From: Bacteroidota bacterium
Lineage (GTDB): Bacteria > Bacteroidota > Bacteroidia > Sphingobacteriales > Sphingobacteriaceae
NCBI GenBank assembly: GCA_026224775.1
Contig: JAMFRP010000030.1
Location: 10,013-74,012 of the forward strand
Length of the DNA stretch: 64,000 nucleotides
Direction: 5' to 3'
Shown here piece after piece: positions 9,237-59,462 of this stretch (position 1 is its first letter; each line of letters opens with the position of its first letter). The notes under the pieces were generated by a model that ran no database searches, was not told the origin of the DNA, and was given only the letters and a program-made list of their open reading frames with translations. Both the position numbers and the translations under genes were made by a program.

Positions 9237-9252
9237 TGCAATATATAGACCA
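9237..9252 (-). promoter_or_regulatory. sigma54 -24/-12 promoter of kinase 8336-9172 and regulator 6357-8315
   Basis: TGGTCTATATATTGCA (GG-N10-GC); IHF-like AATCAACATCTTA at 9271-9283; palindrome at 9314-9331, 61 nt away. Confidence 0.65.
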
Positions 9253-9313
9253 CGTAAACAATTCATTAATAATCAACATCTTACATAAAAAGCAATTTAT
9301 CCAATCAACGGTA

Positions 9314-9331
9314 TTTCGCTGAACAGCGAAC
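9314..9331. promoter_or_regulatory. Palindromic enhancer-like site
   Basis: TTTCG-CTGAACAG-CGAAC. Confidence 0.65.
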
Positions 9332-9353
9332 GCATAGGCGATTTTGTCGATGA

Positions 9354-10994
9354 TTAACAGGGAATCTCTTTGATCAAAGCGCTCTTGTCAAATCTGTCGT
9401 TATCTTCGCTGATGAGGATTTTCTTTGAGAAGATGACCTGCATATAAAGCCCCTCTTCATTGCTAAGCTTGAGCTGTCCACCCAATTGCTTGCTTAACCC
9501 ACTCATTAAGCTCATGCCCAAAGAATTACAATCAGCTATATTAAAGTCATGCGGCAATCCTTTACCGTTGTCGGCAATCGACAGCTTTATATTCTCGTTG
9601 TCAATTCCATTAAGGCCGATAACTATCGTTCCTTTTATTTGGGGCGTAAATGCATGCTTAATTGCATTGGTAACCGCTTCGTTAAGGATGAGACCTATCG
9701 GTACAGCCTGTGCCACGTCCAAACAAATGGGTTCAACTTCGAGCATTATCAAGATATTCTTTGCGGTATCAAAACATTCCCTTAAATACCCAGTCAGGTC
9801 AGTGATATAATCGAACATGTCGATACAGGTGAGGTTCTCTGTCTGGTATAATTTCTGGTGGATAAGTGATATGGAAAACATTCGGTGCTGGCTTTCACGG
9901 ATCGCCTCAAGCGCTTTGTCATTATCTAAATATAACGATTGTGTATTCAACAGGCTGATCACGATCTGGAGGTTATTCTTCACCCGGTGATGAATTTCCT
10001 TCAACAGCCATTCTTTTTCACTTAACAGGTATTCCAGCGACAGATTTTTTTTGCTTATCTCCAGGTTAGCCTCTTGTTTTAAGCGATACCTGTTGTAGAG
10101 TAAACCGACGATGATGAGCAACAAAAGCACGCCCAGCAAAGTTACATTTCTGGTCATGTTTGATTTTTCGAGCGCATTTAACTGCAGTTTGTTACTGGTT
10201 CTCAATAATTGGATATCGCGTTCTTTTTTTTCCGTTTCAAACTGCATTTGTACGTTCCGAACCTTTTGTAAAACATTGGTTCGTGCAATGGAATCATACA
10301 TCAGCTTTACATTGGTCAGGTGCACAACTGCCGACTTATAATCTCTGGTGGCTGTGTCCACTTTAAAATAGCTCTCGAAAAGAATTCGCCGGTCTTGTAT
10401 AGTACCAGCCCTTATATTCATCGGAAGGGTGGATTCCAAATACTTTTTGGCCGCTGCATATTGCTTAGTTATAATAAAATAATTAATAATGATATGAAAC
10501 GGCTTTACTTTTAACCCTTCATTAATTTTTGCGTCGTTTACTAATAACAAAAGGAGCTCACAATAATGCTTCGCTTTGGTCAACTCGTTTTCCCCGGTAT
10601 AAAAGTCCAAAAGCTTACTATAAATATTAAGTCGGTCAGTTATGTTGTCCGGAACTTTATACCCTGCCACAATCCGGTCAACCAAGCGGGCTGCATCTTG
10701 TCTCTGATTCTTTTCATTCAGTGCATTGGCAATGGTTAGCGCCGTCATATAGGTTGCCTGGTCATTCCCTTTTTTCTCAGCAATTAAAAGTTCGTTCTGC
10801 AGATCACTTATCGCCGGGGATTCTGTGCCGTGACGGGCACCACCAACATCATTTTGTGTACGCGTCCTGTTTTGTGCAGTATCGTACAGGGGATGTGACT
10901 TGCCGGGCGATGCTAAAAGTTTCGACGCTAACGGCGGTGAAAATATTAAAAGAAAAATAAAAGAAATAGCCGGTTTCAGTAATATATTATTCAT
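9354..10994 (-). CDS. Membrane sensor histidine kinase (periplasmic helical repeats + HisKA_2 + HATPase)
   Basis: Signal peptide, helical repeats, FETEKKE..I..L coiled coil, TM, KEIHHRVKNNLQ, NEAVTNA, ADNGKG; likely start ATG 10994. Confidence 0.92.
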   Translation of the reverse strand: MNNILLKPAISFIFLLIFSPPLASKLLASPGKSHPLYDTAQNRTRTQNDVGGARHGTESPAISDLQNELLIAEKKGNDQATYMTALTIANALNEKNQRQDAARLVDRIVAGYKVPDNITDRLNIYSKLLDFYTGENELTKAKHYCELLLLLVNDAKINEGLKVKPFHIIINYFIITKQYAAAKKYLESTLPMNIRAGTIQDRRILFESYFKVDTATRDYKSAVVHLTNVKLMYDSIARTNVLQKVRNVQMQFETEKKERDIQLLRTSNKLQLNALEKSNMTRNVTLLGVLLLLIIVGLLYNRYRLKQEANLEISKKNLSLEYLLSEKEWLLKEIHHRVKNNLQIVISLLNTQSLYLDNDKALEAIRESQHRMFSISLIHQKLYQTENLTCIDMFDYITDLTGYLRECFDTAKNILIMLEVEPICLDVAQAVPIGLILNEAVTNAIKHAFTPQIKGTIVIGLNGIDNENIKLSIADNGKGLPHDFNIADCNSLGMSLMSGLSKQLGGQLKLSNEEGLYMQVIFSKKILISEDNDRFDKSALIKEIPC

Positions 10995-11077
10995 GGAATC
11001 TAAAATGATAAGGTAAAGCACCTTGCATGATAATATAAGGAAAAGGCCCCTGATGTAATTTGCATGACCTCCGGATA

Positions 11078-11092
11078 CGAAAATTCAAGCCA
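11078..11092 (-). promoter_or_regulatory. Candidate sigma54 promoter of kinase 9354-10994
   Basis: TGGCTTGAATTTTCG (weak -12); palindrome at 11154-11171, 61 nt away. Confidence 0.45.
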
Positions 11093-11153
11093 AAACTTAA
11101 TTATCTAAATATAAAGCACTTATGAATTTACCTCAATTATCATTTTAGTGATT

Positions 11154-11171
11154 TTTCGCTATTTTGCGAAA
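11154..11171. promoter_or_regulatory. Palindromic enhancer-like site
   Basis: TTTCG-CTATTTTG-CGAAA, overlapping the perfect palindrome GCGAAATTTCGC (11166-11177). Confidence 0.65.
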
Positions 11172-11440
11172 TTTCGCCAAAACGTAATTTATTCAAGCGG
11201 AGTTTATGGCGATCGTGCAATATTATCATATTAACCTTTGCTGTTCTGAGCGTCATTATTAATCATATTACGTGCAATCTTTCCCACGCTGACAGCAAGA
11301 TGATTTCCAGCCAGTTTACATCCACCAGTAAAAACCAATAGCATTATTCCGATAAGCTTTGATGCTGCACCTTTTGATAAGTTGCGTTCATGCCATATGA
11401 CAAGCTGATCAAGTTCAGTAATCGCACGACATAAATAGCT

Positions 11441-11668
11441 TTACTGTATAGTGAATTTATCAACCCACCGTTTTATCACCGGCACGAGAATAAAACCTAC
11501 CGGGATCGAAATACAGCAGCCGGTAATAAAATCCGGCCCCCACATTACCAGGAATTCATTATTCAATGGATGATGTGTCCACAAAATGCCGAAACTCAAT
11601 ATAGCCGTGGTAGCGATAGAAACAAGTACGATAAATACAGCGAAGCCCTGCCCTTTTGATAATTTCAT
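11441..11668 (-). CDS. DUF2798-like small membrane protein
   Basis: Two TM segments with FLVMWGPDFITGCCISIPVGFILVPVIKRWV pattern. Confidence 0.7.
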   Translation of the reverse strand: MKLSKGQGFAVFIVLVSIATTAILSFGILWTHHPLNNEFLVMWGPDFITGCCISIPVGFILVPVIKRWVDKFTIQ

Positions 11669-11694
11669 AGTAATCTTTTATGATATGCGGTAAA

Positions 11695-11709
11695 TCAAAC
11701 TAAATACCA
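11695..11709 (-). promoter_or_regulatory. Candidate sigma54 promoter of the DUF2798 gene
   Basis: TGGTATTTAGTTTGA; site TTTAA-AGAATTAG-CGAAG at 11772-11789, 62 nt away. Confidence 0.5.
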
Positions 11710-11884
11710 AGATTTTAAATACTAATTTACAACTAGTTAACCTAAAAAGCCTTCAATCAACATTTGCGACATTTAAAGAATTAGCGAAGCTTGCATAAAA
11801 TTTGTATGTTCATCTTCAGTCGGAATAATTGAAAAACCACTCAGCTATTTATTAGCGGGATTTGCGGTAACCAATATCTAACAA

Positions 11885-13115: not shown

Positions 13116-13156
13116 AGTTTTAAGTTCCTCTGAATAGTAACAGTGATCAGACCTAT

Positions 13157-13171
13157 TCAATTTAAGTTCCA
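13157..13171 (-). promoter_or_regulatory. Candidate sigma54 promoter of the membrane protein/phosphatase unit
   Basis: TGGAACTTAAATTGA; IHF-like TATCAGTTACTTA 13189-13201; TTTCG-TTAATTGT-CGAAA at 13233-13250, 61 nt away. Confidence 0.6.
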
Positions 13172-13232
13172 AGTCCTATTTCACACAATATCAGTTACTT
13201 ACACTTAACATTGGCAAAGGTCAATCTCTTCA

Positions 13233-13313
13233 TTTCGTTAATTGTCGAAAAATGACAATCTACATGGTACCGAGTGCGCATTCTTATTTGCGAAATTTCG
13301 AGTTTTGATGAAA
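13233..13313. promoter_or_regulatory. Two palindromic enhancer-like sites between divergent promoters
   Basis: TTTCG-TTAATTGT-CGAAA (13233-13250) and TTTCG-AGTTTTGA-TGAAA (13296-13313). Confidence 0.65.
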
Positions 13314-13374
13314 TATAAACACAGAAACCGGATCAATCATTCAATATACATCTAACTACCAGATAGTTAACAAA

Positions 13375-13390
13375 TGGCATTCACGTTGCA
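13375..13390 (+). promoter_or_regulatory. sigma54 -24/-12 promoter of the MBL hydrolase
   Basis: TGGCATTCACGTTGCA, near-consensus, 33 nt before ATG 13424; palindrome ends at 13313, 61 nt away. Confidence 0.8.
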
Positions 13391-13423
13391 CCATCGGCAA
13401 TTAACTATTAAAAATAAATTCTT

Positions 13424-15460: not shown

Positions 15461-15674
15461 CCTTTCGGAATTGTGCAAACCGAAAGTGGTTAGCGACAGC
15501 AACTTTATAACAGCACGGCCAATATTTGTCAGGTTTGCTAATGCCGTTTTATACATACCCCTAGGCAGCCAGTTTTGCCACTGGCACTGCCCTTCCGATT
15601 GCTAAAAACTTAACCATGAAATAACGGCTACTTCATAGCCGACCATTAGAAAAATGGAAAAAAATTTCGCATTC

Positions 15675-15770
15675 ATTCGCTATTTAGCGGAATACAACTA
15701 AACTCCAGGCTCGATAGCTACCTTAAATATACTGATTTACAGTTATTTATAAATTGGCTTCGCATTTGGT
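15675..15770 (+). promoter_or_regulatory. Enhancer + IHF-like + sigma54 promoter module for 15860-18834
   Basis: ATTCG-CTATTTAG-CGGAA (15675-15692); AATCAGTATATTT on minus (15725-15737); TGGCTTCGCATTTGGT (15755-15770); spacer 62 nt. Confidence 0.6.
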
Positions 15771-15859
15771 AATCATTTTTAGGAGGATCATCAATTCGGT
15801 TAGAATTCAGTAGTCACTCCATTCACAGTATTGTATTATAACTTAAAACTAAGACAACA

Positions 15860-20446: not shown

Positions 20447-20557
20447 ATTGCGATGCTCAAAGACCAAACGATAGTTAAAAAATGCCTGTTAACCACTGTC
20501 AAAATAACACAATTGTTCTCTAATCAACATTAACCGCAAAGCATCCTTTCTGTATGA

Positions 20558-20651
20558 ATTCGACTTTTAGCGGTATTTAAACGCGCTTTTTGCTTGTTAA
20601 AAATACAAACACCTCATTATAAGCAACTTAATACAGTGGCACATCTTATGT
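20558..20651 (+). promoter_or_regulatory. Enhancer + sigma54-like promoter module for 20682-21554
   Basis: ATTCG-ACTTTTAG-CGGTA (20558-20575); TGGCACATCTTATGT (20637-20651; perfect -24, weak -12); spacer 61 nt. Confidence 0.55.
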
Positions 20652-20681
20652 AAAATGGTAAATACATTAAAACATTAAGAT

Positions 20682-21598: not shown

Positions 21599-21670
21599 CT
21601 GGCAATTATTAAATCGTCCTGGAACTGCCGCTTTCTAGTCCATTTATAGCCAAAGAATAAATGAGATACA

Positions 21671-21766
21671 TTTCGATAATTAGCGAAATAAAACTAATAA
21701 AATTAAAATAAAACACCATTCATAATGCTAATTATCAGGTATTTACTCATTGGCATAACACTTGGC
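21671..21766 (+). promoter_or_regulatory. Enhancer + sigma54 promoter module for the esterase unit
   Basis: TTTCG-ATAATTAG-CGAAA (21671-21688); TGGCATAACACTTGGC (21751-21766); spacer 62 nt. Confidence 0.7.
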
Positions 21767-21851
21767 ATATACCAGATATCACATTCATATATTCTAAAAT
21801 CAGAACAATTAATTTATCATTTAAAATTATTCACATCTTAAAAACAATAAA

Positions 21852-22907
21852 ATGAAAACTAATCATAACCCGTTAAAAAAGGTTCTTATTTGTGGCGCAC
21901 TGGCATTCAGTCTGACGGCCGCAGTAAACGGCAAACTATATGCGCAGGGGCCGGCTGCGGATGATCCGCATATTTCACAAGCAGTAAAAAAATTCCTTGT
22001 GCCGTTAAATGCACCCGGCCCCGGTTTGGAGACGCTTGGTCCCAAAGCGGCAAGGCAGGCACTCGTTGACGCGCAGGCTTCTGTTAAATTCGATTACTCC
22101 AAAGTTGTTGAGTCCGAAAAAACAATAGTGGCCGATGGGCATACGATTAAGCTAAGCATCATGAGGCCAAAGGGTGTGACCGGTAAACTACCTGTATTTA
22201 TGTATATCCATGGCGGCGGCTGGGTTTTAGGCGACTATCCTACTCACAGGCGCATGGTACGAGACCTGGTTATGCTAACCGGCTTTGAAGCCGTGTTTGT
22301 TAACTATACGCCTTCGCCGGAAGCAAAATACCCTGTTGCTGTGAATGAAATTTATGCAGCCTCGAAATGGGTAAGCACTCATGGTAATGAAATTAATGCT
22401 GATGGTTCCAAGCTTGGTATTATCGGAAACAGCGTTGGTGGAAATATGTCAACGGCAACTGCATTAATGGCTAATGCTAAGGGCAAACAGATATTTAAAG
22501 TTGAAGTATTAATGTGGCCGGTAACGAATGCTGATTTTGAGGATGGTTCATGGAAAGCTTATGGAGATCAGCGCTTTTTAACTGCTCCATTAATGAAATG
22601 GATGTGGAATAATTATGCCACTCCAGAGCAGAGAAAAGAAATATATGCCTCTCCCCTTCAGGCAACCCCAGCTGACATGAAAGGCTTACCTCCAACACTG
22701 ATCATGGTTGCTGAAAATGATATTTTACGCGATGAAGGTGAAGCATATGGCCGTAAGCTGGATGAAGCCGGCATTGTTGTAACAACTATCCGGTTCAATG
22801 GTGTCATCCACGATTGGGGCTTGTTAAACGGACTGGCAGAAATTCCGCAAACGAAAGCATTGTTCCTTGAGGCATCTGCAACTTTGAAAAAATATCTTAA
22901 TAAATAA
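21852..22907 (+). CDS. Exported alpha/beta hydrolase, HSL-family esterase
   Basis: Signal peptide; HGGGW; GNSVG (Ser); ENDILRDE (Asp); IHDWG (His). Confidence 0.92.
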   Translation: MKTNHNPLKKVLICGALAFSLTAAVNGKLYAQGPAADDPHISQAVKKFLVPLNAPGPGLETLGPKAARQALVDAQASVKFDYSKVVESEKTIVADGHTIKLSIMRPKGVTGKLPVFMYIHGGGWVLGDYPTHRRMVRDLVMLTGFEAVFVNYTPSPEAKYPVAVNEIYAASKWVSTHGNEINADGSKLGIIGNSVGGNMSTATALMANAKGKQIFKVEVLMWPVTNADFEDGSWKAYGDQRFLTAPLMKWMWNNYATPEQRKEIYASPLQATPADMKGLPPTLIMVAENDILRDEGEAYGRKLDEAGIVVTTIRFNGVIHDWGLLNGLAEIPQTKALFLEASATLKKYLNK

Positions 22908-22998
22908 AAAAGCGTTACCTGTTTTTTAACAAAAAAAAATTAACGGCTGGTTGGTAATTACAATCAGCCGTTATTCATCTTCAAGCATTAAGAGTTAT

Positions 22999-23562
22999 AT
23001 GTATAAAATTGAGGAAATTGAACAAACTAAGCATAATAAGCTATCATCTTCCAGGGTTACCGCCATCATCAATGCGCCTATTGAAAAGGTGGACATCGCG
23101 GATTGGCTTTTAAACCTACCGGATAAGGAATATCAACGCTGTTCAACGCAGCATATTGCTGCGGGCGTTACGACCACAGATGATGGCCAGCCGATGAGCA
23201 TCAACGTTGAAACCATTGGCTCAGCACTGATGATTCAGCACTATGTCGCTGTTATTCATCAACCGCATTATTGTCGTATGCTTTCAATTTCAGATGCGAT
23301 AACGCCTTCCGGGCGTACTAAGGTACAGGTATTATGGGAACTCCGAGCAGTGAGCATTGACGGTCAAACGACCGAATTCAGCAATACGATACATGCAACA
23401 GCGACACCCGAATTTATGGACTATCTCGAGAAAAATAAAATGACCATTAGCCAGGCGTCCGAGGCAAGACAAGCGGCGTCGTCTGCGCACAATCTCGAAG
23501 AAACACCATTGTTTGCCAGTAGTATTGGAAGAAAAGCGCTTACAGGAAAATACGGATCATAG
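22999..23562 (+). CDS. Conserved hypothetical protein (possibly SRPBCC/START-like fold)
   Basis: INAPIEKVDIADWL..SINVETIG..MIQHY..WEL; likely start ATG 22999; fold is a guess. Confidence 0.65.
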   Translation: MYKIEEIEQTKHNKLSSSRVTAIINAPIEKVDIADWLLNLPDKEYQRCSTQHIAAGVTTTDDGQPMSINVETIGSALMIQHYVAVIHQPHYCRMLSISDAITPSGRTKVQVLWELRAVSIDGQTTEFSNTIHATATPEFMDYLEKNKMTISQASEARQAASSAHNLEETPLFASSIGRKALTGKYGS

Positions 23563-23753
23563 TAAATTGATTATAGATATTTAATTCTTAACAGGTTATC
23601 ATCATGGTACTCGACAGCTCTTTTTACTGGATTATAACTGTCTTTGCAGGCACCATCATATTTGGTGCAATTGCTTATCCTTCCTCCTACCTGGGCAGAA
23701 AAATAAGACGAAAAAATCCGAAGTCAAAATCTTTAAAAAACTCAATAATATCC

Positions 23754-23999
23754 ATGGAAAATAAATTAGAAGATAACGCGGTCCTATCCCATATCAAAAA
23801 GCTAACCGCCAGAGAAGAACATTTGTATGGAACTGAGCAGCTCAGTGATGAGGATATCAAAGAATTACATCACATTCAATCCGAGTTGGATCAGTATTGG
23901 GACCTGCTGCACCAAAGAAGAGCGTTACGGGATGCCGGAAGTGACCCTAAAAGGGCGGCCATGCGCACCACTGAAACCATAAAAAGCTATGTCAAATGA
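23754..23999 (+). CDS. DUF2630 family protein
   Basis: VLSHIKKL..EE..L..L..I..ELDQYWDLLHQRRALRDAG.DP..A..R...I..Y; in-frame upstream ATG at 23604 adds 50 aa with a TM segment. Confidence 0.8.
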   Translation: MENKLEDNAVLSHIKKLTAREEHLYGTEQLSDEDIKELHHIQSELDQYWDLLHQRRALRDAGSDPKRAAMRTTETIKSYVK

Positions 24000-24325
24000 C
24001 AAGCGGGTTCACAGTGATTAATGACACCTATCATTTAGCATTTGTTGTTGATCTGGACGGTGAACAAGCCACAATAGATTATCGGTATTATAAACATGAT
24101 ATTGCATTTCTGCATAGTTATGTACCTGAGCACTTCCGGGGAAAAGGAGTTGCGAAGGCACTTGCAGAAACCGCTTTAACCTTCGCCAGAAAAGAGAATA
24201 AAAAAATCATGCTGTATTGCCCCTTTATGTCGAAGTATGTCAGGGAACATCCGGAATATCACGACCTGGTCGACACTGAATTTCACCAAACATTCTTCAG
24301 TAAACCGCAAGATGATCCGCAGTAA
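23996..24325 (+). CDS. GNAT acetyltransferase-like protein (YjdJ type)
   Basis: IAFLHSYVPEHFRGKGVAKAL..CPFM.KY. Confidence 0.85.
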   Translation: MTSGFTVINDTYHLAFVVDLDGEQATIDYRYYKHDIAFLHSYVPEHFRGKGVAKALAETALTFARKENKKIMLYCPFMSKYVREHPEYHDLVDTEFHQTFFSKPQDDPQ

Positions 24326-24355
24326 ATTTGCCAACCCAGCCAACAAATAACAAAT

Positions 24356-25621
24356 ATGCATAACAGTTTAATGCCTTTAACCACGGTCAAGCTTTACGGT
24401 GAACTCGATTCCAGGGAGGCATATATTATCCGTGATTTTTTAAAACGGAGCGTTGTAGGGTATGAATGGGTTATCCTGGACGGCCCCGAACAGCTCAAAG
24501 AGCGTGCTCCGGTTAAGGAGGATGATGTTGTCAAACTTCCTGCATTAGTGTTGCCCGACGGAGTCATTCTTTACGATCCCTCAATCTCAGAGATTGCCAG
24601 TAAACTAGGCTGGCTGTTAAAGCCTCAACTGAATGAATATGATCTTTCTATTTATGGCGCAGGACCTGCCGGGCTCAGCGCTGCAGTTTATGCAGCCTCC
24701 GAAGGGCTAAGAACGATCATCATCGAGCGTGAAGCTATAGGCGGACAAGCAGGGACCAGTTCGCTCATTGAAAACTATCTCGGATTTCCCGATGGGGTCT
24801 CCGGAGCCGAACTTGCTGAGCGGGCCAGACAGCAGGCTGTTAAATTTGGAGCGGAAATTCTGTTGATCAGAAACGGTGTCAAGGCAATGTATTTTAATAA
24901 TAAACTGCACGTAGAACTTATTGATGGTAGCAAAGTAATCTCCAGATCGAATATTTGTGCCACAGGTGTTCAATACAGAAAGCTAAATATCAGCAATGAA
25001 GACAGGTTTCGCAACCTCGGTATTTTTTACGGGGCCGGGGCCAGTGAGGCACCCATGTGCATCAATTATACCGTCTACGTTGTCGGGGGCGGCAATTCCG
25101 CAGGTCAGGCCGCCATCTATTTTTCGGCATTTGCGGCTAAAGTTATCATGGTGGTCAGGGGGAGCGACCTGTCTTCTACATTATCCTCTTACCTTTTAAG
25201 CAGAATAGGAAAAAAGAAAAACATAACAGTGCTGTTTAACTCGGAGATTACAGCGCTTTACGGTGACATTGTTTTAAAAGAGATCGAGATAACTGACCAA
25301 AAGAAAAATATCAGTAAGAAATATGCTGCCCAAAAGGTATTCATCTGTATTGGGGGGATTCCAAATACAGACTGGGCGAAAAACACAAAAATCATCAGGG
25401 ACAATGGCGGATATTTCATTACAGGTGCCGATTTGCTGATAAATGGCATACCAGCCCAATGGGAACTGGAAAGGCCTCCATTTTATCTCGAAACAAGCGT
25501 TCCCGGTTCCTTTGCTGCCGGAGATGTCCGGCACAACTCGGTTAAACGTGTAGCCTCTGCTGTTGGTGAAGGCGCGATGGCGGTAACTTTTGTGCATAAA
25601 TATCTGCAAGAAACTTATTAA
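24356..25621 (+). CDS. FAD/NAD(P)-dependent oxidoreductase, thioredoxin-reductase-like, with glutaredoxin-like N-terminal domain
   Basis: IYGAGPAGLSAA, GGQAGTSSLIENYLGFP, VVGGGNSAGQAA, FAAGDVR..SAVGEG; no CxxC. Confidence 0.9.
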   Translation: MHNSLMPLTTVKLYGELDSREAYIIRDFLKRSVVGYEWVILDGPEQLKERAPVKEDDVVKLPALVLPDGVILYDPSISEIASKLGWLLKPQLNEYDLSIYGAGPAGLSAAVYAASEGLRTIIIEREAIGGQAGTSSLIENYLGFPDGVSGAELAERARQQAVKFGAEILLIRNGVKAMYFNNKLHVELIDGSKVISRSNICATGVQYRKLNISNEDRFRNLGIFYGAGASEAPMCINYTVYVVGGGNSAGQAAIYFSAFAAKVIMVVRGSDLSSTLSSYLLSRIGKKKNITVLFNSEITALYGDIVLKEIEITDQKKNISKKYAAQKVFICIGGIPNTDWAKNTKIIRDNGGYFITGADLLINGIPAQWELERPPFYLETSVPGSFAAGDVRHNSVKRVASAVGEGAMAVTFVHKYLQETY

Positions 25622-25626
25622 AAACC

Positions 25627-25893
25627 ATGGATATACCTACATGCGAACACCTTAAAGATTTTAAAATCATCCCAGCAAGCAAAGATTATTGTGAAGAGTG
25701 CATTAAAATCGGAAGCCCCTGGGTTCACTTACGCTGCTGTCAAACTTGCGGCGCTGTTCTGTGCTGTGATTCTTCTCCTAACAGGCATGCCTCAAAACAC
25801 GCTTTTAGTTTGCACCACCCGGTTATCATATCTGCGGAAGCTGATGAGAATTGGGCCTATTGCTACTTAGACGATCAGGCTATAGAAATTTAG
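25627..25893 (+). CDS. Stand-alone UBP-type zinc finger protein
   Basis: C.H..CEECIKIG..WVHLRCCQTCG.VLCCDSSPNRHASKH..WAYCY.D. Confidence 0.9.
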   Translation: MDIPTCEHLKDFKIIPASKDYCEECIKIGSPWVHLRCCQTCGAVLCCDSSPNRHASKHAFSLHHPVIISAEADENWAYCYLDDQAIEI

Positions 25894-25940
25894 CCGGATG
25901 TGATTAAAATATAAACCAATTAACTATTAAATTTAATATA

Positions 25941-26891
25941 ATGACAAAATTAATAAATGGGTTACACCATATCACCGCTTTAGCGGGCGACCCTCAAAAA
26001 AATCTGGATTTCTATACCGGTATCTTAGGTCTGAAACTGGTTAAAAAAACCATTAATTTCGATGCGCCGGATACTTATCATTTTTACTATGCCGATGATA
26101 GTGGCAGTCCGGGCACTATTCTCACTTTCTTTCCCTTTAAAGGTATACAACCCGGAAAAAACGGAAAAGGACAATTAACCCAGACCTCATTTTCAATACC
26201 GGAAAATAGCGTCGGTTACTGGCTCGAAAGATTAAAAAAGTATCAGGTTAAACACCAGCAGCCGCAGAACCGCTTTGAAGAGACTTATATTTCGCTGGAA
26301 GATCCTGACGGGCTGGGCATCGAACTTATTGCTACCGCACAGGATCGGAGGCCGGGATTCACCTACGGACATATACCCCTGGAAAATTCAGTCAAAGGCT
26401 TTCACTCTGTTTCTCTTTGCGAGGAAGGTTATGAAAAAACAGCAGGAATACTCACCAATTTACTGGATCACCATTTAGTTGCCGAATCAGGCAACCGCTT
26501 TCGCTATGGCGTTGAAGGAAACGACCTGCAATATGTAGATATTATCTGTATGCCGGATACCCAACGGGGGCTGAGCGGCTCGGGGACGGTACACCATATG
26601 GCGTTTTCCACTGATAACGATCAGACCCAACTTGAAATACGTAAAAAAGTAGAGTCCGCCGGTTTAAATATTTCACCCGTTCTTGATCGTGATTATTTCC
26701 ATTCCATCTACTTCCGCGAGCCCGGTGGCGTTCTGTTTGAGGTAGCTACAATTCCGCCGGGATTCGCTGTCGACGAATCGACTGATCACCTGGGCGAAGA
26801 ACTTAAGCTGCCTTCATGGGTGGAGATTCATCGCGAGGATATCGTTAAGGGGCTTACACCAGTAAGTTTAAATTTAAAAAACTATGAATAA
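25941..26891 (+). CDS. VOC-family ring-cleaving dioxygenase (MhqO/PcpA-like)
   Basis: GLHHITA, KKTINFD, VHHMAF, DRDYFHSIYFREPGGVLFEVAT. Confidence 0.93.
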   Translation: MTKLINGLHHITALAGDPQKNLDFYTGILGLKLVKKTINFDAPDTYHFYYADDSGSPGTILTFFPFKGIQPGKNGKGQLTQTSFSIPENSVGYWLERLKKYQVKHQQPQNRFEETYISLEDPDGLGIELIATAQDRRPGFTYGHIPLENSVKGFHSVSLCEEGYEKTAGILTNLLDHHLVAESGNRFRYGVEGNDLQYVDIICMPDTQRGLSGSGTVHHMAFSTDNDQTQLEIRKKVESAGLNISPVLDRDYFHSIYFREPGGVLFEVATIPPGFAVDESTDHLGEELKLPSWVEIHREDIVKGLTPVSLNLKNYE

Positions 26892-27519: not shown

Positions 27520-27562
27520 CTTTGTAAACAGCACCATTAAGATTTTTTTAGCCATTTTCAGG

Positions 27563-27604
27563 GCCTCATTAGCTGCCAAATAGTTTTTCGAAGGCTAATG
27601 AGGC
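27563..27604. terminator. Intergenic hairpin
   Basis: GCCTCATTAGC / GCTAATGAGGC 11-bp arms with a 20-nt loop. Confidence 0.45.
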
Positions 27605-27652
27605 TTCGATAAAATAGACCGTGGTAAACAGTTCAATTAAGTTAATCAACAC

Positions 27653-33011: not shown

Positions 33012-33033
33012 TACCCAATAGCAAACCACCGCT

Positions 33034-44405: not shown

Positions 44406-44412
44406 AGCTCAA

Positions 44413-45807
44413 TTATTTAACATTTAATTTAATCCCTTCAGGAAGCCCGGAAATAAAGTTATCGGTCTTTCTTTCATCTGTTTTTAATGTATTTTGAATC
44501 TCTTCCGGACCCTTTTGTACTATCTTACAAATGAATTTAATATACGCCGCCAATAAGATAATATAGGTAATCAGGAAAAGGCTGAATGAGAAAACAACCT
44601 GAAAATTACTCAGGGAAGATGCTGCCGCCTCTGTCCGGAGCAAGCCATAAATTACATAGGGTTGCCTTCCTGTTTCAGAAGTAATTCAACCGGCTATTGT
44701 CGCAATAACACCCGCCGGTGTCATGAAAATACTCATTTTTAAAAACCATCGTTTAACGAATAAGTTTCCTGTAAATCTCAGTGCAATGCTAGTTAATGCG
44801 GTAAAAAACATGAGGATGGCAATTAAAAACATTACCCTGAAGAAGTAAAAGGTAAGGGCCATATTCGGTTGATTTTCCGGAGGTGTCCTTTTCAAACCTT
44901 GTACCGTACCATGCAGGCTATGGGTTATTAATATACTGCCCATATATGGAATACCGACCTGAACATCGTTCCGTTGATTTTTAAAATCAGGATTGACAAA
45001 AAGAAGGTAAGGCGCTGTTGGTGTATCTTCCCAAAAACCTTCCAGCGCTTCGGTTTTCGCGGGCTGATAAACAGCCATTTTTGCGTATAGCGTATCTCCT
45101 ACCCATAATTGAACCGGTATTAAAACAGTTATAATCGCCAGGGAAATGGAGTAAGTGGTTTTCGCAAAGCTGAGATACCGGTTTTTCAACAAGTACCATG
45201 CAGAAATACCGGCAACGAGGAAGCTGGAGGCGAACATCGAAGCCAGTAACATATGGGGATATCTGATATAGAAAGACGGATTGAAAACGGCGTGCCACCA
45301 TTCAGTAATGAAATATTGCCCATTACTGAATTTATAACCCGCGGGTGTATGCAGCCAGGAATTCGCACCCAGAATCCAGGTTGCCGAAATCAGGGTACCT
45401 ACGGCAACCATCAGCGTTGCAAAGAAATGTACTTTCTTATTTACCCGGTTCCATCCCAATAACATGATCCCTAAAAAACCTGCTTCAAGGAAAAATGCGG
45501 TCATTACCTCCAGTCCAATGATACTGCCTAAAACCGGTCCTGCCGCATAAGAGAATTTTGACCAGTTAAGGCCAAACTGAAAAGACATAAAAATACCGGT
45601 CACCACACCTATCGAGAAGTTCAAGGCAAAAATTGATGTCCAGAATTTGTATATCCGGAAATATTCTACTTTTCCCGTTTTAAGATACATGCCATGAATC
45701 AGCACCAGAAACCACGACAAGCCGATAGAAAGCGCGGGAAACATAATGTGGTAACTGGCGGTAAAACCAAATTGAAAACGAGAAAGAAATTCTGCAAAAT
45801 TATTCAT
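44413..45807 (-). pseudogene. cydA: Cytochrome bd oxidase subunit I (short Q-loop), interrupted by in-frame TGA at 44686-44688
   Basis: SRFQFGFT..YHIMFP, EVMTAFFLEAGFLG, PHMLLAS, KTEALEG, FRVM; frame reads AG*ITSETGRQPY across the stop (conserved AGWxxxExGRQPW) and continues to TAA 44413, 464 codons in total. Confidence 0.9.
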
Positions 45808-52266: not shown

Positions 52267-52296
52267 ATTTAAAAGCAATTAATTTCACGGCACAGA

Positions 52297-52392
52297 ACCA
52301 AGTAAAATGCCAAGCATATAAAATGCTTTATATCAACTATTTATAAAATAAAAACCTTATCTACTTTAGTCATATTTAAAGAATTAGCGATT
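52297..52392 (-). promoter_or_regulatory. Enhancer + IHF-like + sigma54 promoter module for the ycaC-cyd operon
   Basis: TGGCATTTTACTTGGT on minus (52297-52312); TATCAACTATTTA (52331-52343); TTTAA-AGAATTAG-CGATT (52375-52392); spacer 62 nt. Confidence 0.7.
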
Positions 52393-52570
52393 TTTACTAA
52401 CGAAAAGGCTCCTTTGCGGAGCTATAATACCGGGATTAAATTCTATGATTTCTACCTGTTTTAGATAACCTTAAGTATACTATTAAGTACCAATTCATGT
52501 TTGGGCTACAGGTTTACCGGACAAAAAACAGCACGGGCAAAGAATACCAAAAGATTGCTTCACACAGATA

Positions 52571-52664
52571 TATCGCAAAAAAGCGAAATATGACTAAACC
52601 CAGCAATTACGAAAATTCACAACAAACTGATTAACTGATATTTAGTCAACGGGCATGAGATTGG
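52571..52664 (+). promoter_or_regulatory. Enhancer + IHF-like + sigma54-like promoter module for the sORF and HD-Pycsar gene
   Basis: TATCG-CAAAAAAG-CGAAA (52571-52588); AATCAGTTTGTTG on minus (52620-52632); CGGGCATGAGATTGG (52650-52664); spacer 61 nt. Confidence 0.55.
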
Positions 52665-52689
52665 ACTATCGTTCCAAAATAATTAAGAG

Positions 52690-52791
52690 ATGGAAAATTT
52701 ATTATTTTATACGACACGGGTTATCCTTTTTTGCTGCATGCTGATTATTATTTATATCACCACCCAGCCGGAATTAGATCCATTCGAATGA
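52690..52791 (+). CDS. Candidate 33-aa single-TM small protein (not in ORF track)
   Basis: Manual translation MENLLFYTTRVILFCCMLIIIYITTQPELDPFE; ATG 25 nt after the promoter module. Confidence 0.5.
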   Translation: MENLLFYTTRVILFCCMLIIIYITTQPELDPFE

Positions 52792-54167: not shown

Positions 54168-56618
54168 TTATGAATGTTCTAAATTTTCACCGGAAAATTT
54201 CACTGTAATGATCGTTCCTCCATTATTTTCAATATTGAACTCAGCTTTAATTTCCTTGCAAAGTCCTTTCATTAAAGTCATACCCAGCGAGGCAGCAGGT
54301 TTATTCTGCGGTAAATTAGTCGAAAAACCGATTCCATTGTCCGCTATCGTCAAAAAGTAGTATGACACTTTTTTAACAAATGCTATGGTAATTTCACCAC
54401 CGGGTTTATTAAATGCGTATTTTATTGAATTGGTAATCGCTTCATTTAGGATTAGTCCTATAGGTATAGCTATGGAAACGTCAAGTTCAATTAGTTCAAT
54501 ATTTAAATTGAAATGAATCGCGTTGTCAGTTTTGAAACTGTCTTTTAAATACCCAACCAACTCGCGAATATAGACCGACATGTTCACTGAGGAGGTATTC
54601 TCAGTTAAATACAATTTCTGGTGAATTAATGACATGGCATGGATCCGGTGCTGGCTGTCGCGTACAGCTGCCAATGCATCATTCCCCAAATAAGCAGTCT
54701 GGGACTCGAGCAGGCTTACAATAGTATGCAGGTTATTTTTTACCCGATGATGGATTTCCCTTACCAGCCATTCTTTTTCCTGTACCAGATGCTCTAATTC
54801 ATCATTTTTATCGGTTATGATCTTTTGTTGATTGGTTAATTGAATATTACTGTTTTGTTTGGACCGATACAGGTAGTAAAGTAAACCTGCAATAATCGTT
54901 ATTAAGGTAATTCCTCCAAGAATGATGTTCCGTAAATAGGTGGCATGCCTGAGATTTGTTTTTTGAATTTCACTGCTCTGTTGTAAATTTTTTATGCTAC
55001 GGTCTTTTGTTTCTGTTTGGTATTTGACCACCAATGCTGCATACTGCTGCCTTTGTTTGTTATTCTCGGCCGAGTCGTCAATCATTTTAAACATTTTTAA
55101 ATCTGCAATAGCAGATTTGAGATTTCCGGATGCTGAATCAACTTGGTAAAGCACGAGATAGTCCAGCGATGAAACTCCTGGTGTTTTTAGCTGGGTTGAG
55201 ACCAAGATTGATTTTTGAGCCAATTCTCTAGCGGCAGCAAATTTTCTATTTTGAACATAAAATTCAGCTATCCTTCCATAAGCACTCGGCAGCTCACCAT
55301 GAACATACTGTGGCGGAAAATGTTTAGCGAGGTCGATAAATTGGTTATAATCTAATTCAGCCATTGTTTTTTGCCCAGTGTGTTGGTAATAGCTCCCTTC
55401 TATTAAGGCAATATACATCTGATCAAAGGTTGTCTTTGGAGGGAACGGCTTAGTGATTTTTTGAATAAGTTCGTATTCTTGTTTATACTGACCAAATTGG
55501 TCGTACCAAAATATTTCTGCCAAAAAGCTTTTATACCAAAAAACCTGATTCTGTTTCGTTTTGTAACCATTTAATGCTTTATCATACCAGCGAAAACCTT
55601 CCTTGATCTGATTAAGCTTCATAATAATATCGGCGTTTCTTATGTAGTAGACGCTGGCCAAGGCAAAATCACCAGTGGCTTGCAAGTCTTTAATTGATTG
55701 TTGATTATAGCTAAGAGCCTTCATAAAATCGTACTTCAATGAATATATGTAGGCCAATGTATTTTCAACAAATTGAAGATGTCTGAATCCGACAGCTTTT
55801 TGTAAGGCAAGAACGCTTATCAGTTCGTCTGTCGCTCTATCCATATTTGTCGCAAAATGCACAGTCAATATCCCTGTCAGAGCTTCTATCTCTCCGATAT
55901 TCTCATGGTATTGCCGGCTGAGACTTAAAGACTTCTCTAAAATTTCCAGCTTCCCGGGACTATTGTATGGAAGGTAAGATGCCTGGCAAAGCAGTGTTGA
56001 TATCAACACTGGGATATCATTCTTTTTTGACAGCGAATTTATAGCGCTGGAAAAATACGCCTGCCCTTCTTTTATATTTCCTGTACGACAGTAATACTGC
56101 CCGTAAAGTACCATGCATTCGTCGTGCCAATGTTGTTGGGGTCCAACATTCGTCGCTACATCTGCATACTTTATATATTTTTGCGCGCTATCAAGGCTGG
56201 GTTGGCCACCGCCGGGCTTAAACAAATAATAGCTGCCCAACTCGAATAAGGTCCTGATTTTATCTTCCGGTTTTTGGATTAGTAGGAGTTCCCGGGTTTG
56301 CTTTATTTTTCCTGCATCAATTAGCTTCATACCCGGCGTAACCGAGTCTCCGTCATAATTTTCATTGTAGGGTACCAGGCGGTTGATATGATAGATTTGA
56401 CAAGCCATTATAACAGCACTGTCCTGATCGATTTGTCCCTGCGTGACCTGGTTGATATAGTTCCCTGCTGAAAGTACCAGCAAGCGTTTCATTGATGTAT
56501 TATAGTATTCCACTGGCGAACTGTAGACTATCTGCGCCCGGGAATTATTGCCAACTAACAACAATAGCAGGATGGAGAGATATAGTTTGGTCGCTGATAT
56601 GTTAAGTTTTTCGGTCAT
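54168..56618 (-). CDS. TPR-like membrane sensor histidine kinase (HisKA_2)
   Basis: Signal peptide; long helical-repeat domain; TM; REIHHRVKNNLH; NEAITNS; ADNGIG. Confidence 0.93.
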   Translation of the reverse strand: MTEKLNISATKLYLSILLLLLVGNNSRAQIVYSSPVEYYNTSMKRLLVLSAGNYINQVTQGQIDQDSAVIMACQIYHINRLVPYNENYDGDSVTPGMKLIDAGKIKQTRELLLIQKPEDKIRTLFELGSYYLFKPGGGQPSLDSAQKYIKYADVATNVGPQQHWHDECMVLYGQYYCRTGNIKEGQAYFSSAINSLSKKNDIPVLISTLLCQASYLPYNSPGKLEILEKSLSLSRQYHENIGEIEALTGILTVHFATNMDRATDELISVLALQKAVGFRHLQFVENTLAYIYSLKYDFMKALSYNQQSIKDLQATGDFALASVYYIRNADIIMKLNQIKEGFRWYDKALNGYKTKQNQVFWYKSFLAEIFWYDQFGQYKQEYELIQKITKPFPPKTTFDQMYIALIEGSYYQHTGQKTMAELDYNQFIDLAKHFPPQYVHGELPSAYGRIAEFYVQNRKFAAARELAQKSILVSTQLKTPGVSSLDYLVLYQVDSASGNLKSAIADLKMFKMIDDSAENNKQRQQYAALVVKYQTETKDRSIKNLQQSSEIQKTNLRHATYLRNIILGGITLITIIAGLLYYLYRSKQNSNIQLTNQQKIITDKNDELEHLVQEKEWLVREIHHRVKNNLHTIVSLLESQTAYLGNDALAAVRDSQHRIHAMSLIHQKLYLTENTSSVNMSVYIRELVGYLKDSFKTDNAIHFNLNIELIELDVSIAIPIGLILNEAITNSIKYAFNKPGGEITIAFVKKVSYYFLTIADNGIGFSTNLPQNKPAASLGMTLMKGLCKEIKAEFNIENNGGTIITVKFSGENLEHS

Positions 56619-56710
56619 TCTGGTAATTTTTTAATTTTCAAGTATCGGATATAAGGACCAATGGAAACGGTGGAATATTGGAGATAGTAATACAATAAAA
56701 AGACGATGAA

Positions 56711-59179
56711 TCAGTGTTCTAAATTCTTCCCGCTGAATTTTATAATAATGATCGTTCCTTTATCGGCTTTGATGTGAAATTCAGCACCGATTTCCTTGCA
56801 AAGCCCTTTCATTAATGTCATTCCCAGTGAGGTAACCGGCGTAGCTTGCTGAAAATCTGTCGATATCCCAATACCGTTATCTGCTATAGTAAGCAAGTAA
56901 AAGGATTCTTTTTTAATAAGTTGAAGGGTCACTTCTCCCCCAGCCTCACCGAATGCATATTTTATCGAATTGGTGATGGCCTCATTTAAAATTAACCCGA
57001 GCGGGATGGCCGTAGCTACATCCAGTTCGATAGATTCAACTTCTAAATTGAAATAAATAGTATTATCTGTTTTAAAGCTTTCCTTTAAATATCCGGTAAG
57101 TTCGCGGATATAAACGGACATATTCACCGAAGAAACATTCTCAGACAAATATAATTTCTGGTGAATAAGCGACATGGCGTGAATCCTGTGCTGGCTGTCT
57201 CGTACCGCGGCTAGTGCATCATTTCCAAGATAAGCGGTTTGGGATTCCAGAAGGCTTACAATGGTATGCAAATTATTTTTTACCCGGTGATGGATCTCCT
57301 TTACCAGCCATTCCTTTTCTTTAACCAAATGTTCTAAATCGATATTTTTTTCAGTGATTTCTGATTGCTGAACCTGTAATAAGCGGTTACTTTTCTGTTT
57401 CGTTTGAAATAAGTAATAAAGTAACGCGGCAATTATGGCGAAAAGGATCGCCCCAATTAAAATTATATTTTTAATAAAGTCCGATTGTTTGAGCTTGTTA
57501 GTTTTTAATTGATCATTCTTAGTAAGTATCTTAATATCCTTGTCCTTTCCTTCAGCGTCATATTGAATACGAAGCTCATTGTATTTAAAAGCCTGTGACA
57601 CGTTGATCGCAGAATCATACAGCTTTTGATATATTTTATAATTTTGAAGAGCGGATTGAAATTTCCCTGCAGCAGAATCTAACTGGTACTGATTATAATA
57701 TACGCCTGATAGCGAAGATCTCCATTCCGGCGTGGAAGCCGTTTGCCTTGCAAGTCTATTCGAAGCCTCTGCTTCTTTAAATTTACGCTCCTTGATATAG
57801 ACTTTCGTGATATAATAATATCCCACAGGAAGTCCGGTAACGTGGCTATATTCAGGAGGATATTTTGAAGCAGAATCCAAAAATAACTTTATTTGCTGCT
57901 CTGCTTTTGAAAACGCGCCAATGCCAAGATAACATTCTCCGGTATGGAACTCCAACTGCATTCTATCGAAGGCATTTGCCGGAGGGTATTTGACATTTAT
58001 CTCGTTGATTAATGCGAGTGCCTGGCCAATACGATTTAACCATATTAAGTTGGTTAGCTCTTGAAGAAAACAAACATACCAAAATACTTGGGTTTGCTTA
58101 CTCTTTGGGCCATCCAATCCTTTTTGAAGCCACTGCAATCCGGTATCAAATTGCCCTAAATCGTGATAATTCTGCCCCATGCGCAAATAGAACACACTCG
58201 ATAGCGCCCGGTCTCCGGTTGCTTGCATACATTGCAAAGCCATGTGCGAGTAATTTAAGGAAACTTGATATTTACTCTGATTGTTGGTGATAAATGCAAG
58301 TACATCGTAAACATATTGGCGATGCCGGAAGCCGATCTTTTTCTGCAAATCTCCCACTTGTATGACGTATGACATTGCTTTTTGAAAATCTACCGGAAAA
58401 AGAACCGTGGCCAAAGCTGTTAACACACGAATCTCGATTATGGGCAGGTTGTACTGTTTGCAAAGGTCAAGTGAACTATTTAAAGTTTTGAATTTTAGCG
58501 GATCGTTATAAGGCAGGAATGTAGCCTGCTCTAATAAGGCGGTGGCCAGCTCTCGGCTCTCATTTGCTGATGCCAAAGAATTTACAATCGTTTTAAAATA
58601 AGTTTCGCTAGTCTTTACATCGCCTTTTTTAAAGTAATATTGGCCATATAAATTCAGCACGCTGTTCTTCATTTTCTTTGAATTAAGTGTCTTGACCAAT
58701 TCTGCCGCTTGTGAAATATAACCCAGTGCAGTATCAAGATTGGCACTTACCGGCTGAGGTTTATATAAATAATAACAACTTAACTCTTCCAGCGTCCTCA
58801 GTTTATTGATAGGTTGCTGGTTTTTTAGCAGCATTTTCACCTCATTGATCTTACCCTGGTCTATAAGCGCCATACCCGGAGTCTGCAAGTCACCATCATA
58901 CCCTTCGTTATAGGGTAACAGCCTGTTAATATGATAAATCTTGCAGGCCATAGCTGACGAGCTGTCGGGATCGAGCTGATTTTGTGTTATCTGATTAATA
59001 TAATTTCCGGCACTAATGGCTAACAAGCGCTTCATAGGAACGTTATAGTAGTCAACCGGTGAATTATAAATTTCCTGAGCGCTGGCTGTCGTATACGAGA
59101 ATGTTACGACGCAGAAGATGGTGAATAGTTTTGCAAGAAATAAAAGGTTCAACTTGTTGCCCATTCTTTGAATTAACAT
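56711..59179 (-). CDS. TPR-like membrane sensor histidine kinase (HisKA_2), tandem paralogue of 54168-56618
   Basis: Same architecture; KEIHHRVKNNLH; shared N-terminal MKRLL..SAGNYINQ motif. Confidence 0.93.
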   Translation of the reverse strand: MLIQRMGNKLNLLFLAKLFTIFCVVTFSYTTASAQEIYNSPVDYYNVPMKRLLAISAGNYINQITQNQLDPDSSSAMACKIYHINRLLPYNEGYDGDLQTPGMALIDQGKINEVKMLLKNQQPINKLRTLEELSCYYLYKPQPVSANLDTALGYISQAAELVKTLNSKKMKNSVLNLYGQYYFKKGDVKTSETYFKTIVNSLASANESRELATALLEQATFLPYNDPLKFKTLNSSLDLCKQYNLPIIEIRVLTALATVLFPVDFQKAMSYVIQVGDLQKKIGFRHRQYVYDVLAFITNNQSKYQVSLNYSHMALQCMQATGDRALSSVFYLRMGQNYHDLGQFDTGLQWLQKGLDGPKSKQTQVFWYVCFLQELTNLIWLNRIGQALALINEINVKYPPANAFDRMQLEFHTGECYLGIGAFSKAEQQIKLFLDSASKYPPEYSHVTGLPVGYYYITKVYIKERKFKEAEASNRLARQTASTPEWRSSLSGVYYNQYQLDSAAGKFQSALQNYKIYQKLYDSAINVSQAFKYNELRIQYDAEGKDKDIKILTKNDQLKTNKLKQSDFIKNIILIGAILFAIIAALLYYLFQTKQKSNRLLQVQQSEITEKNIDLEHLVKEKEWLVKEIHHRVKNNLHTIVSLLESQTAYLGNDALAAVRDSQHRIHAMSLIHQKLYLSENVSSVNMSVYIRELTGYLKESFKTDNTIYFNLEVESIELDVATAIPLGLILNEAITNSIKYAFGEAGGEVTLQLIKKESFYLLTIADNGIGISTDFQQATPVTSLGMTLMKGLCKEIGAEFHIKADKGTIIIIKFSGKNLEH

Positions 59180-59367
59180 CCTTCCGGCATTTTGAAAGTA
59201 ATATTTACTGACTCTTTTCGATTAAAAACATCAAAGTTGAATACCTTTTTGAGATTGCTAACCACATCAATATTATACAATAAAATCTAATTAATCAAGC
59301 TCTTACAAAAGGATTAGCTTAAAGACTATCACTATCTTGATTTGGTCTACGGTCTATTTTTATAGAT

Positions 59368-59462
59368 TTTAACGTTTTAGCGGTATTTAACCAAAGCGCC
59401 GTACGCCACCGCATCATAATTACCTTTAAATCAAATACTTGTGATTAAGGTACATCATTTGC
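59368..59462 (+). promoter_or_regulatory. Enhancer + sigma54-like promoter module for the efflux operon
   Basis: TTTAA-CGTTTTAG-CGGTA (59368-59385); AATCAAATACTTG (59429-59441); AGGTACATCATTTGC (59448-59462, GG-N10-GC); spacer 62 nt. Confidence 0.55.

Follow-up and report, generated by a model that had tools for sequence, protein, structure and literature searches.

A sigma-54 promoter cassette of fixed geometry in a Mucilaginibacter gene cluster and its candidate activators

The locus considered here raises the question of what a dozen promoters have in common when each carries the same palindrome at the same distance from its −24/−12 elements, and of which protein could read them. The window analyzed, a stretch of 64,000 nucleotides (nt), corresponds to bases 10013-74012 of contig JAMFRP010000030.1 (C45, 96,187 bp) in the draft genome of a Mucilaginibacter bacterium (5.43 Mb, 40% GC, assembly 94.7% complete); positions are given in window numbering unless preceded by C45. 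An earlier sequence-only reading of the window had listed 12 pairs of a sigma-54-type promoter and an upstream palindrome, and had interpreted them as a regulon of sigma-54 and its bacterial enhancer-binding proteins (bEBPs). The 12 pairs are all found in place, each facing an open reading frame (ORF), and the regulon is supported; in this genome it is confined to one contig, where about 18 operons within one 70-kb stretch share a control cassette, or module, of about 100 bp. The interpretation favored here, with a probability of about 0.78, is that of a conserved sigma-54 cassette composed of a dyad, a box of the integration host factor (IHF) type and a −24/−12 promoter at fixed distances, which would be read by a clade of bEBPs with an FhlA-like helix-turn-helix (HTH). 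The feature is real and its mechanism would be an ordinary one; the novelty lies in the motif, in the activator clade, in a spacing kept to about one base across genera and in the occurrence of four activators with one DNA-binding helix.

Anatomy of the cassette and its restriction to one contig

The modules known on C45 amount to 17, i.e., the 12 of the window, four detected independently by a composite scan and a weaker one at C45:75968, while a profile model added an 18th. When the 12 window sites were aligned on the GG of the −24 element, the palindrome was best written as TTCG(C)-N6-(G)CGAAAT(A), and seven sites showed a distance of 71 nt from its centre to the first G of that GG, the remaining five showing 72 nt. 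The spacing of 61–62 nt proposed in the sequence-only reading is the same distance measured edge to edge, and the rigid geometry that it had pointed out holds within ±1 nt at the 12 sites. The five further modules of C45 align at 70–73 nt. The same reading had considered this geometry unusually short, which was not borne out: the palindrome centre is at about −96 relative to the expected start site, inside the usual range, since proximal enhancers such as the NtrC, PspF and FlbD sites are usually found 80–150 nt upstream.

The consensus of the module alignment is ATTTCGCnAATTAGCGAAATATAACnAAA ... TAAnnAnCTGATTATCAGnTATTTA ... TTGGCATnTnATTTG, the middle block being the region of the bending box. 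The right half-site of the palindrome is conserved better than the left one, often has ACYAAA next to it, and occurs in the sub-classes GCGAAAT, GCGGTAT, TTTAAAT and GTYAAAT; some promoters have in addition an extra half-site or, 18 bp further upstream, a second dyad that is weaker. The promoter element is TGGCA-N6-TTGN, with GG and TTG correctly spaced in 15 of the 17 modules (GG-N10-GC test). The −12 element reads TTGC in 7–8 modules, TTGG in five and TTGA in two, and is degenerate in two, so the earlier remark that several −12 boxes read TTGG was accurate: TTGG, TTGA and other variants are as frequent as TTGC. Concerning the IHF-type boxes that had been noticed at several promoters, a perfect WATCAR-N4-TTR match lies between enhancer and promoter, in either orientation, in 9 of the 17 modules, with its TGAT/ATCA core about 21 nt upstream of the GG, although not all the positions previously listed conform to the strict consensus.

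All the modules are intergenic, and the facing ORF begins 8–98 nt past the expected start site. Two 16–17-mers covering the dyad are repeated exactly, as had been reported, one at 11771 and 52374 (ATTTAAAGAATTAGCGA) and the other at 20565 and 59375 (TTTTAGCGGTATTTAA). Since the sequence between the conserved blocks is unrelated, with pairwise spacer identities of 0.29–0.31, i.e., at random level, the modules are not recent copies of one segment. An exception was observed in the modules at 11076-11172 and C45:81539-81635, both located before kinase genes, which share the spacer AATTGAGGTAAAT(T)CATAAG; these two promoters are probably paralogous.

The specificity of the arrangement was evaluated with position weight matrices trained on the 12 window sites and applied with thresholds of at least 12 bits for the upstream activating sequence (UAS), at least 8 bits for the promoter and an offset of 77–80. 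All 16 hits of this composite scan, a form of which had been suggested as a check of the sequence-only reading, fell on C45 (96 kb), with the remaining 5.33 Mb of the genome devoid of them. Four of the 16 were beyond the right end of the window and hence independent of the training. No composite hits were obtained in 100 first-order Markov resamples of C45, nor in 40 resamples of intergenic composition, and eight other offset windows yielded 0–3 hits genome-wide at the same thresholds. The enhancer matrix alone gave 24 hits of at least 17 bits in the genome, of which 19 were on C45.

Other ways of counting were less informative. The exact pattern TTCG-N8-CGAA showed no enrichment over other spacings when counted genome-wide, and this approach was set aside because the motif is local and degenerate. 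Loose patterns (with up to two or three mismatches allowed, GG-N8-nT[GC]) gave noise at the genome scale, and only the strict version displayed the 71–72 peak on C45. A strict IUPAC composite pattern recovered just 3 of its own 17 sites against a background of 1–5 per genome, for which reason a profile model was used instead. This profile (R1), built from sequence only over 98 positions of the 17 modules, gave 18 matches in this genome, all of them on C45. Canonical sigma-54-like promoters located elsewhere in the genome, a small and partly intragenic sample, lacked both dyad and box. The GC content of the module region is not distinctive.

Candidate activators and conservation in other genomes

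Sigma-54 is encoded by a single rpoN gene on contig C32 (188.7 bits versus Sigma54_DBD), and 11 genes of the genome contain the full sigma-54 interaction domain typical of bEBPs. Four of these are inside the window. bEBP A (6357-8315, minus strand) consists of a receiver, an unassigned domain of 220 amino acids (aa), an AAA+ domain with a GAFTGA loop and the FhlA-like HTH. bEBP B (30780-32885, minus strand) and bEBP C (33034-35709, plus strand) have GSFTGA in the AAA+ domain, preceded by an unassigned N-terminus of 380 aa in the former and by a GAF-containing N-terminus in the latter, and both end with the same type of HTH. bEBP D (38354-39730, plus strand), encoded after the kinase gene at 35829-38132, is formed by receiver, AAA+ (GAFTGA) and FhlA-like HTH. 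Walker A and B motifs accompany the GAFTGA or GSFTGA loop in all four proteins. Pfam searches at E≤1 assigned no domain to the 220-aa middle of bEBP A and, for the N-terminus of bEBP B, gave nothing more than a faint GAF hint.

The C-terminal HTH is near-identical in bEBPs A–D, GxGGAAE(I/L)L..(P/H)xSTL(N/I)S(K/R)I(K/R)KL(G/N)I(K/Q), with a three-residue insertion, and the recognition helices vary at few positions (PYSTLISRIKKL being one of the variants). In the remaining seven bEBPs of the genome, encoded outside the window, the HTH is of another kind. From the alignment of the helices, we take the HTH of the island bEBPs to be of the FhlA type, GxxGAA...TL.SR.K.LGI. FhlA, the activator of formate hydrogenlyase in Escherichia coli, is also the best or near-best NCBIfam match of bEBPs B and C, but with 375–428 bits versus a cut-off of 830. 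In fact, bEBPs A–D all stayed below the curated NCBIfam cut-offs of the named activators (NtrC, NifA, FhlA, NorR, ZraR, AtoC and others; 358–428 bits versus 830 for FhlA), and their sensory domains and target genes differ from those of FhlA. The idea that an FhlA-like HTH would recognize an FhlA-like site was dropped, as the FhlA site is TGT-N10-12-ACA (PMC6615313) and the one found here is TTCG-N8-CGAA.

Full-length homologues of bEBP A (45–58% identity) occur in the larger Mucilaginibacter genomes, where there are often several of them, in clusters with other bEBPs, and also in Pedobacter, Flavobacterium, Chitinophaga, Spirosoma and Hymenobacter; the HTH signature of the island bEBPs is kept in the homologues from the first four of these other genera. 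By homology to bEBP A, 80 comparison loci were picked from other genera, many of which are orthologous positions in related species, so that the counts that follow overstate the number of independent observations. Flanks of 1.5 kb around the bEBP A homologues contained no modules, which appeared when longer flanks were taken. The matrices of this genome detected 42 composite sites in the 80 loci at offsets 76–81, most of them at 77–80. With an untrained promoter pattern, CGAWAT was found at −67 in 17 cases and at −68 in six, versus a mean of 0.5 per offset, and the position coincides with that seen in this genome.

The occurrence of CGAWAT 67–68 nt upstream of the GG extends to Pedobacter, Flavobacterium and Chitinophagaceae, both before orthologous targets and before the activator gene. 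In about 12 Pedobacter loci, the module stands immediately upstream of the bEBP A homologue. Among the targets, the Pedobacter orthologue (72–75% identity) of the isochorismatase-family gene that follows module 10 of the window keeps the module, and it is also present before orthologues of the alpha/beta hydrolase C45:87903-88724 (74–75%) and of a glyoxalase-fold gene (50–52%), before a kinase orthologue and before a PycTM-domain gene, including the homologue of the latter in Mucilaginibacter lappiensis. In some families, the partner half-site is downstream (CGAAATATCG) instead of 12 bp upstream, with the position of CGAWAT retained.

Within the genus, profile R1 was run against 150 other Mucilaginibacter genomes, 138 of which gave a match at E≤0.01 and about two thirds at E≤1e-4, with at least 27 scored candidates in large genomes. 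When the top hits were inspected, 18 of 20 had the layout of TTCG-N8-CGAWAT dyad, box and TGGCA. Among 150 genomes taken at random from the phylum, none was matched by the same profile at E≤1e-4, a result that doubles as a specificity control. In a subset of 36 genomes (G001–G036), the best R1 hit reached E≤1e-5 for 12 of the 16 genomes that encode an island-type bEBP and for 2 of the 20 that do not, and the median number of matches was 13.5 versus 4.5. Since both numbers increase in larger genomes, and the genomes are related to one another, this co-occurrence of bEBP and module is taken as supportive only. The cassette is thus not peculiar to this island, but genus-wide and present in other families of Bacteroidota.

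Other islands of Mucilaginibacter display different dyads at nearly the same distance, namely ATCGAG-N4-CTCGAA, ACCGATATATCGT and TTGACGAAATTTCGTCAA (loci L034 and L035 of G019, L045 of G002, and L049 and L050 of G014). This suggests that paralogous activators may have diverged in specificity with the geometry kept.

Proposed mechanism and alternative explanations

A mechanism can be proposed in which a dimer of an activator with the FhlA-like HTH would bind the dyad TTCG-N8-CGAA(AT) at about −96, and a bending protein placed at about −46 would fold the short DNA segment between dyad and promoter, bringing the activator within reach of the sigma-54 holoenzyme. The activator would then assemble, and its ATPase would open the sigma-54 closed complex. 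In such a short, protein-bent loop only one helical phase would work, and this is the reason proposed for a spacing held to about one base. In synthetic sigma-54 enhancers from the Amit laboratory, activity reportedly oscillates with loop length. The signals would probably be several and feed the same approximately 18 operons through differing sensory N-termini, because the four activators differ in this part and five HisKA_2 kinases adjoin them.

NifA at nifH and XylR at Pu are known cases of IHF-assisted sigma-54 promoters with NtrC-family activators. The arrangement seen here resembles them in the succession of activator dyad, bending site and −24/−12 promoter, and in the GAFTGA activator with a C-terminal HTH. 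It differs in that the distance is kept within about one base over 17–18 promoters and in other genera, in that there is usually a single evident dyad and the C of the −12 element is not conserved, and in that the genus lacks the IHF alpha/beta pair.

Several observations weigh against the interpretation of the cassette as an activator-read, bent sigma-54 promoter. The C of the −12 element is often absent (it is present in only 7–8 of the 17 modules), the perfect IHF-type box is limited to 9 of 17, and one dyad per promoter means fewer sites than many bEBPs use for hexamer building. The link between cassette and activator is partly built into the 80 loci, which were chosen by bEBP A homology, and related genomes are not independent samples. 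In addition, one genome (G020) has a full-length bEBP A homologue and no R1 match, while some genomes without an island-type bEBP match weakly. Concerning the bending protein, no HU/IHF-family gene was found in this 94.7%-complete assembly (PF00216, PF18291 and tblastn searches). A PF00216 gene is present in 24 of 25 sampled Mucilaginibacter genomes, as one copy in 23 of them and two copies in one, with no alpha/beta pair in these 25. As 24 of the 25 have such a gene, that of the present genome is probably in the missing 5% of the draft, and its absence would be an assembly gap.

The alternative that survives best is in fact a refinement of the interpretation given above, according to which the cassette is shared but serves several sub-regulons, with a different right half-site (GCGAAAT, GCGGTAT, TTTAAAT or GTYAAAT) read by each bEBP. 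The sequence-only reading had spoken of one regulon; the shared cassette stands, while a single regulon is uncertain, given that four bEBPs share the helix and the right half-site has sub-classes. The sharing of exact 16–17-mers over the dyad by the promoter pairs 11771/52374 and 20565/59375 would fit with separate readers, and so would the few differences between recognition helices (PYSTLISRIKKL among them) and the occurrence in other Mucilaginibacter islands of TCGAG-N6-CTCGA or ACCGATATATCGT with almost unchanged spacing. Nevertheless, the island helices resemble one another much more closely than do those of the non-island bEBPs, the half-site variants grade into one another and a single matrix catches all the modules, so the existence of such sub-regulons is possible, with the odds somewhat against it.

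It would be much less probable that the palindrome were the site of another regulator, either a repressor or a co-activator, with the bEBPs acting from solution or from other sites. The assignment of the bEBPs as the dyad binders is itself inferred, and both the ACYAAA conserved after the dyad and the dyad-like character of the bending box leave room for another factor. Yet the dyad occurs only with sigma-54-type promoters and at one distance, it accompanies the bEBP clade from genus to genus and precedes the bEBP genes themselves, and no different regulator gene is consistently linked to it in the window; the only other one seen among the window genes, of the Cro/C1-type HTH class (3199-3597), is outside the module-bearing stretch. 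Finally, although the intergenic DNA of the region is AT-rich (36% GC) and the modules 11092 and C45:81635 have spacer sequence in common, a pattern devoid of regulatory meaning, whether arisen by chance or as a relic of promoter-segment duplication, is extremely improbable in view of the zero composite hits in resamples or in the other 5.33 Mb, the otherwise unrelated spacers, and the module kept upstream of orthologous genes in other genera.

Operons behind the modules and meaning of the regulon

The modules of the window are described here from palindrome to −12. Module 1 (9236-9332, minus strand; UAS 21.4 bits, promoter 14.4 bits) precedes a 278-aa HisKA_2 kinase (8336-9172, minus strand) and bEBP A, which are in the same operon, with the ATG about 54 nt past the expected start. 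The location of this module upstream of the gene of a candidate activator points to positive autoregulation of the bEBP A operon. Module 2 (11076-11172, minus strand), with a second, weaker palindrome 18 bp further upstream, is before a 555-aa HisKA_2 kinase (9354-11021, minus strand), and module 3 (11693-11790, minus strand), whose right half-site is TTTAAAT, is before a 75-aa ORF. Modules 4 (13155-13251, minus strand) and 5 (13295-13391, plus strand) are divergent, the former facing a hypothetical protein of 166/185 aa and the latter a metallo-beta-lactamase-fold hydrolase and an MFS transporter. Module 6 (15674-15771, plus strand) precedes a 118-aa ORF, an Omp85-domain protein and a glyoxalase-fold protein, and module 7 (20557-20653, plus strand), with GCGGTAT as the right half-site, precedes ORFs of 81 and 194 aa.

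The best UAS score (27.6 bits) corresponds to module 8 (21670-21767, plus strand), located before the co-directional genes 21852-28156, from an alpha/beta hydrolase to a DinB-family protein. Module 9 (30631-30727, minus strand) faces an alpha/beta hydrolase and an MFS_3 transporter. Module 10 (52296-52393, minus strand) is before the isochorismatase-family gene and co-directional genes down to 39772, including porin, amidohydrolase, Dps-like protein, cytochrome bd and a CydDC-like ABC pair. In this set, the ORF of cytochrome bd subunit I (44406-45807, minus strand) spans positions 1–357 of a 418-position profile, and a gap of 280 nt separates it from subunit II. Module 11 (52570-52666, plus strand) precedes a 33-aa ORF and a PycTM-domain protein, and module 12 (59367-59464, plus strand) a TolC-like/HlyD-like/MFS efflux set. 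The small ORFs of modules 3 (11441-11668, minus strand, 75 aa) and 11 (52690-52791, plus strand, 33 aa) both begin about 15 nt past the expected starts and are shorter than the usual gene-calling length.

Two weaker cases had also been put forward in the sequence-only reading. The one at 32996 has a real sigma-54-type promoter (11.1 bits), whereas its upstream site is a variant, 2 nt closer than in the other modules: in this variant module (32928-33012, plus strand), which precedes bEBP C, CGAAATATCG starts 65 nt upstream of the GG, and the UAS reaches 7.7 bits with the island matrix. The one at 6124 is not a member, as no promoter was matched there and the spacing of its candidate dyad falls short by about 20 nt. 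As to the remaining HisKA_2 kinases of the window, one with TPR and 767 aa is encoded at 35829-38132 (plus strand), and two others with TPR (816 and 822 aa) at 54168-59179 (minus strand), with no module found upstream of these two.

The cluster extends beyond the right end of the window, because five or six further modules are found in C45:74013-89000 (window-equivalent 64001-78988), i.e., at C45:75968 (plus strand), 81635 (minus), 81741 (plus), 82731 (plus), 84870 (plus) and 88880 (minus). The genes behind them code for MaoC-like, alpha/beta-hydrolase, quinone-oxidoreductase-like, PAP2, HisKA kinase, SDR, YceI and hydrolase proteins. The module at C45:84870-84954 is the 18th, detected by the profile model only; it is followed by about 550 nt with no long ATG-started ORF, and then by a 204-aa ORF with no Pfam match (84870-85508), so the gene behind it may be broken or mis-started. 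Close to the contig ends, a tyrosine-recombinase-like ORF (C45:581-1798) and, far to the right, an integrase fragment (C45:91235-91633) were identified by eye. Recombinase-like ORFs at both ends hint at a present or former integrated element. Left of the window, within C45:581-9630, there are four large ORFs resembling a defence system, P-loop NTPase-like, one of them with a nucleoside-phosphorylase-like N-terminus.

Considered together, the target enzymes are hydrolases of several folds, glyoxalase-fold proteins, oxidoreductases, and one each of the isochorismatase-family, amidohydrolase and GNAT types. The stress-associated targets are a DinB-family protein, the Dps-like ferritin, cytochrome bd with the CydDC-like ABC pair, and YceI; transport is represented by MFS and TolC/HlyD efflux sets, and there are also one Omp85-domain and one PycTM-domain protein. 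The set looks like a detoxification or stress programme. In this regard, the PhyK/PhyR general stress pathway of Alphaproteobacteria also makes use of HisKA_2-type kinases. Two island kinases have PhyK as their top NCBIfam match, at 123–131 bits versus a cut-off of 750, and bEBP A has a receiver similar to those of PhyR. The comparison goes no further than analogy, as the output of PhyK/PhyR is an anti-anti-sigma mechanism with an extracytoplasmic function (ECF) sigma factor, and the output here would be sigma-54 with a bEBP.

No description of this motif or regulon was found in the open-access literature. Comparable objects are the regulons reconstructed computationally for bEBPs in Desulfovibrio vulgaris (PMC4641369) and in Clostridiales (PMC6615313), which also show a bEBP-specific dyad upstream of a sigma-54 promoter, often beside the bEBP gene. 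Most predicted sites in Desulfovibrio are less than 100 nt from the promoter (PMC4641369), and in Clostridiales the distances are 100–250 bp (PMC6615313); in contrast with the case reported here, distances in those studies are spread, the regulons are usually small, there are often several sites per promoter, and Bacteroidota were not covered. In the same phylum, sigma-54 promoters of Flavobacterium psychrophilum (motif SM4) have been validated at −24/−12 by start-site mapping and mutagenesis; no activator sites were named, and the targets are chaperones and gliding genes, unlike those found here (PMC9723704). A cross-phylum survey of sigma-54 regulons published in 2025 scored promoters only.

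A wider proposal, which we regard as rather doubtful, is that Bacteroidota have an undescribed fixed-geometry sigma-54 cassette with a dedicated activator clade marked by the FhlA-like HTH, expanded in Mucilaginibacter into multi-activator islands. In these, several activators with different sensors and almost one DNA-binding helix would act on a common enhancer, possibly in mixed hexamers, and the system, fed by PhyK-like HisKA_2 kinases, would run a general stress or detoxification response. We know of no counterpart of RpoS, SigB or EcfG in this phylum.

As far as the open-access literature shows, neither an activator-binding motif nor a defined regulon of an activator had been proposed before for sigma-54 in Bacteroidota. 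The fixed spacing at 17–18 promoters and its genus-wide recurrence constitute a natural series on loop length and helical phase in enhancer-dependent activation, and the four activators with one DNA-binding helix provide a tractable system for the question of whether different bEBPs can share an enhancer. In soil Sphingobacteriaceae, the composite model can predict a stress/detoxification regulon from sequence alone.

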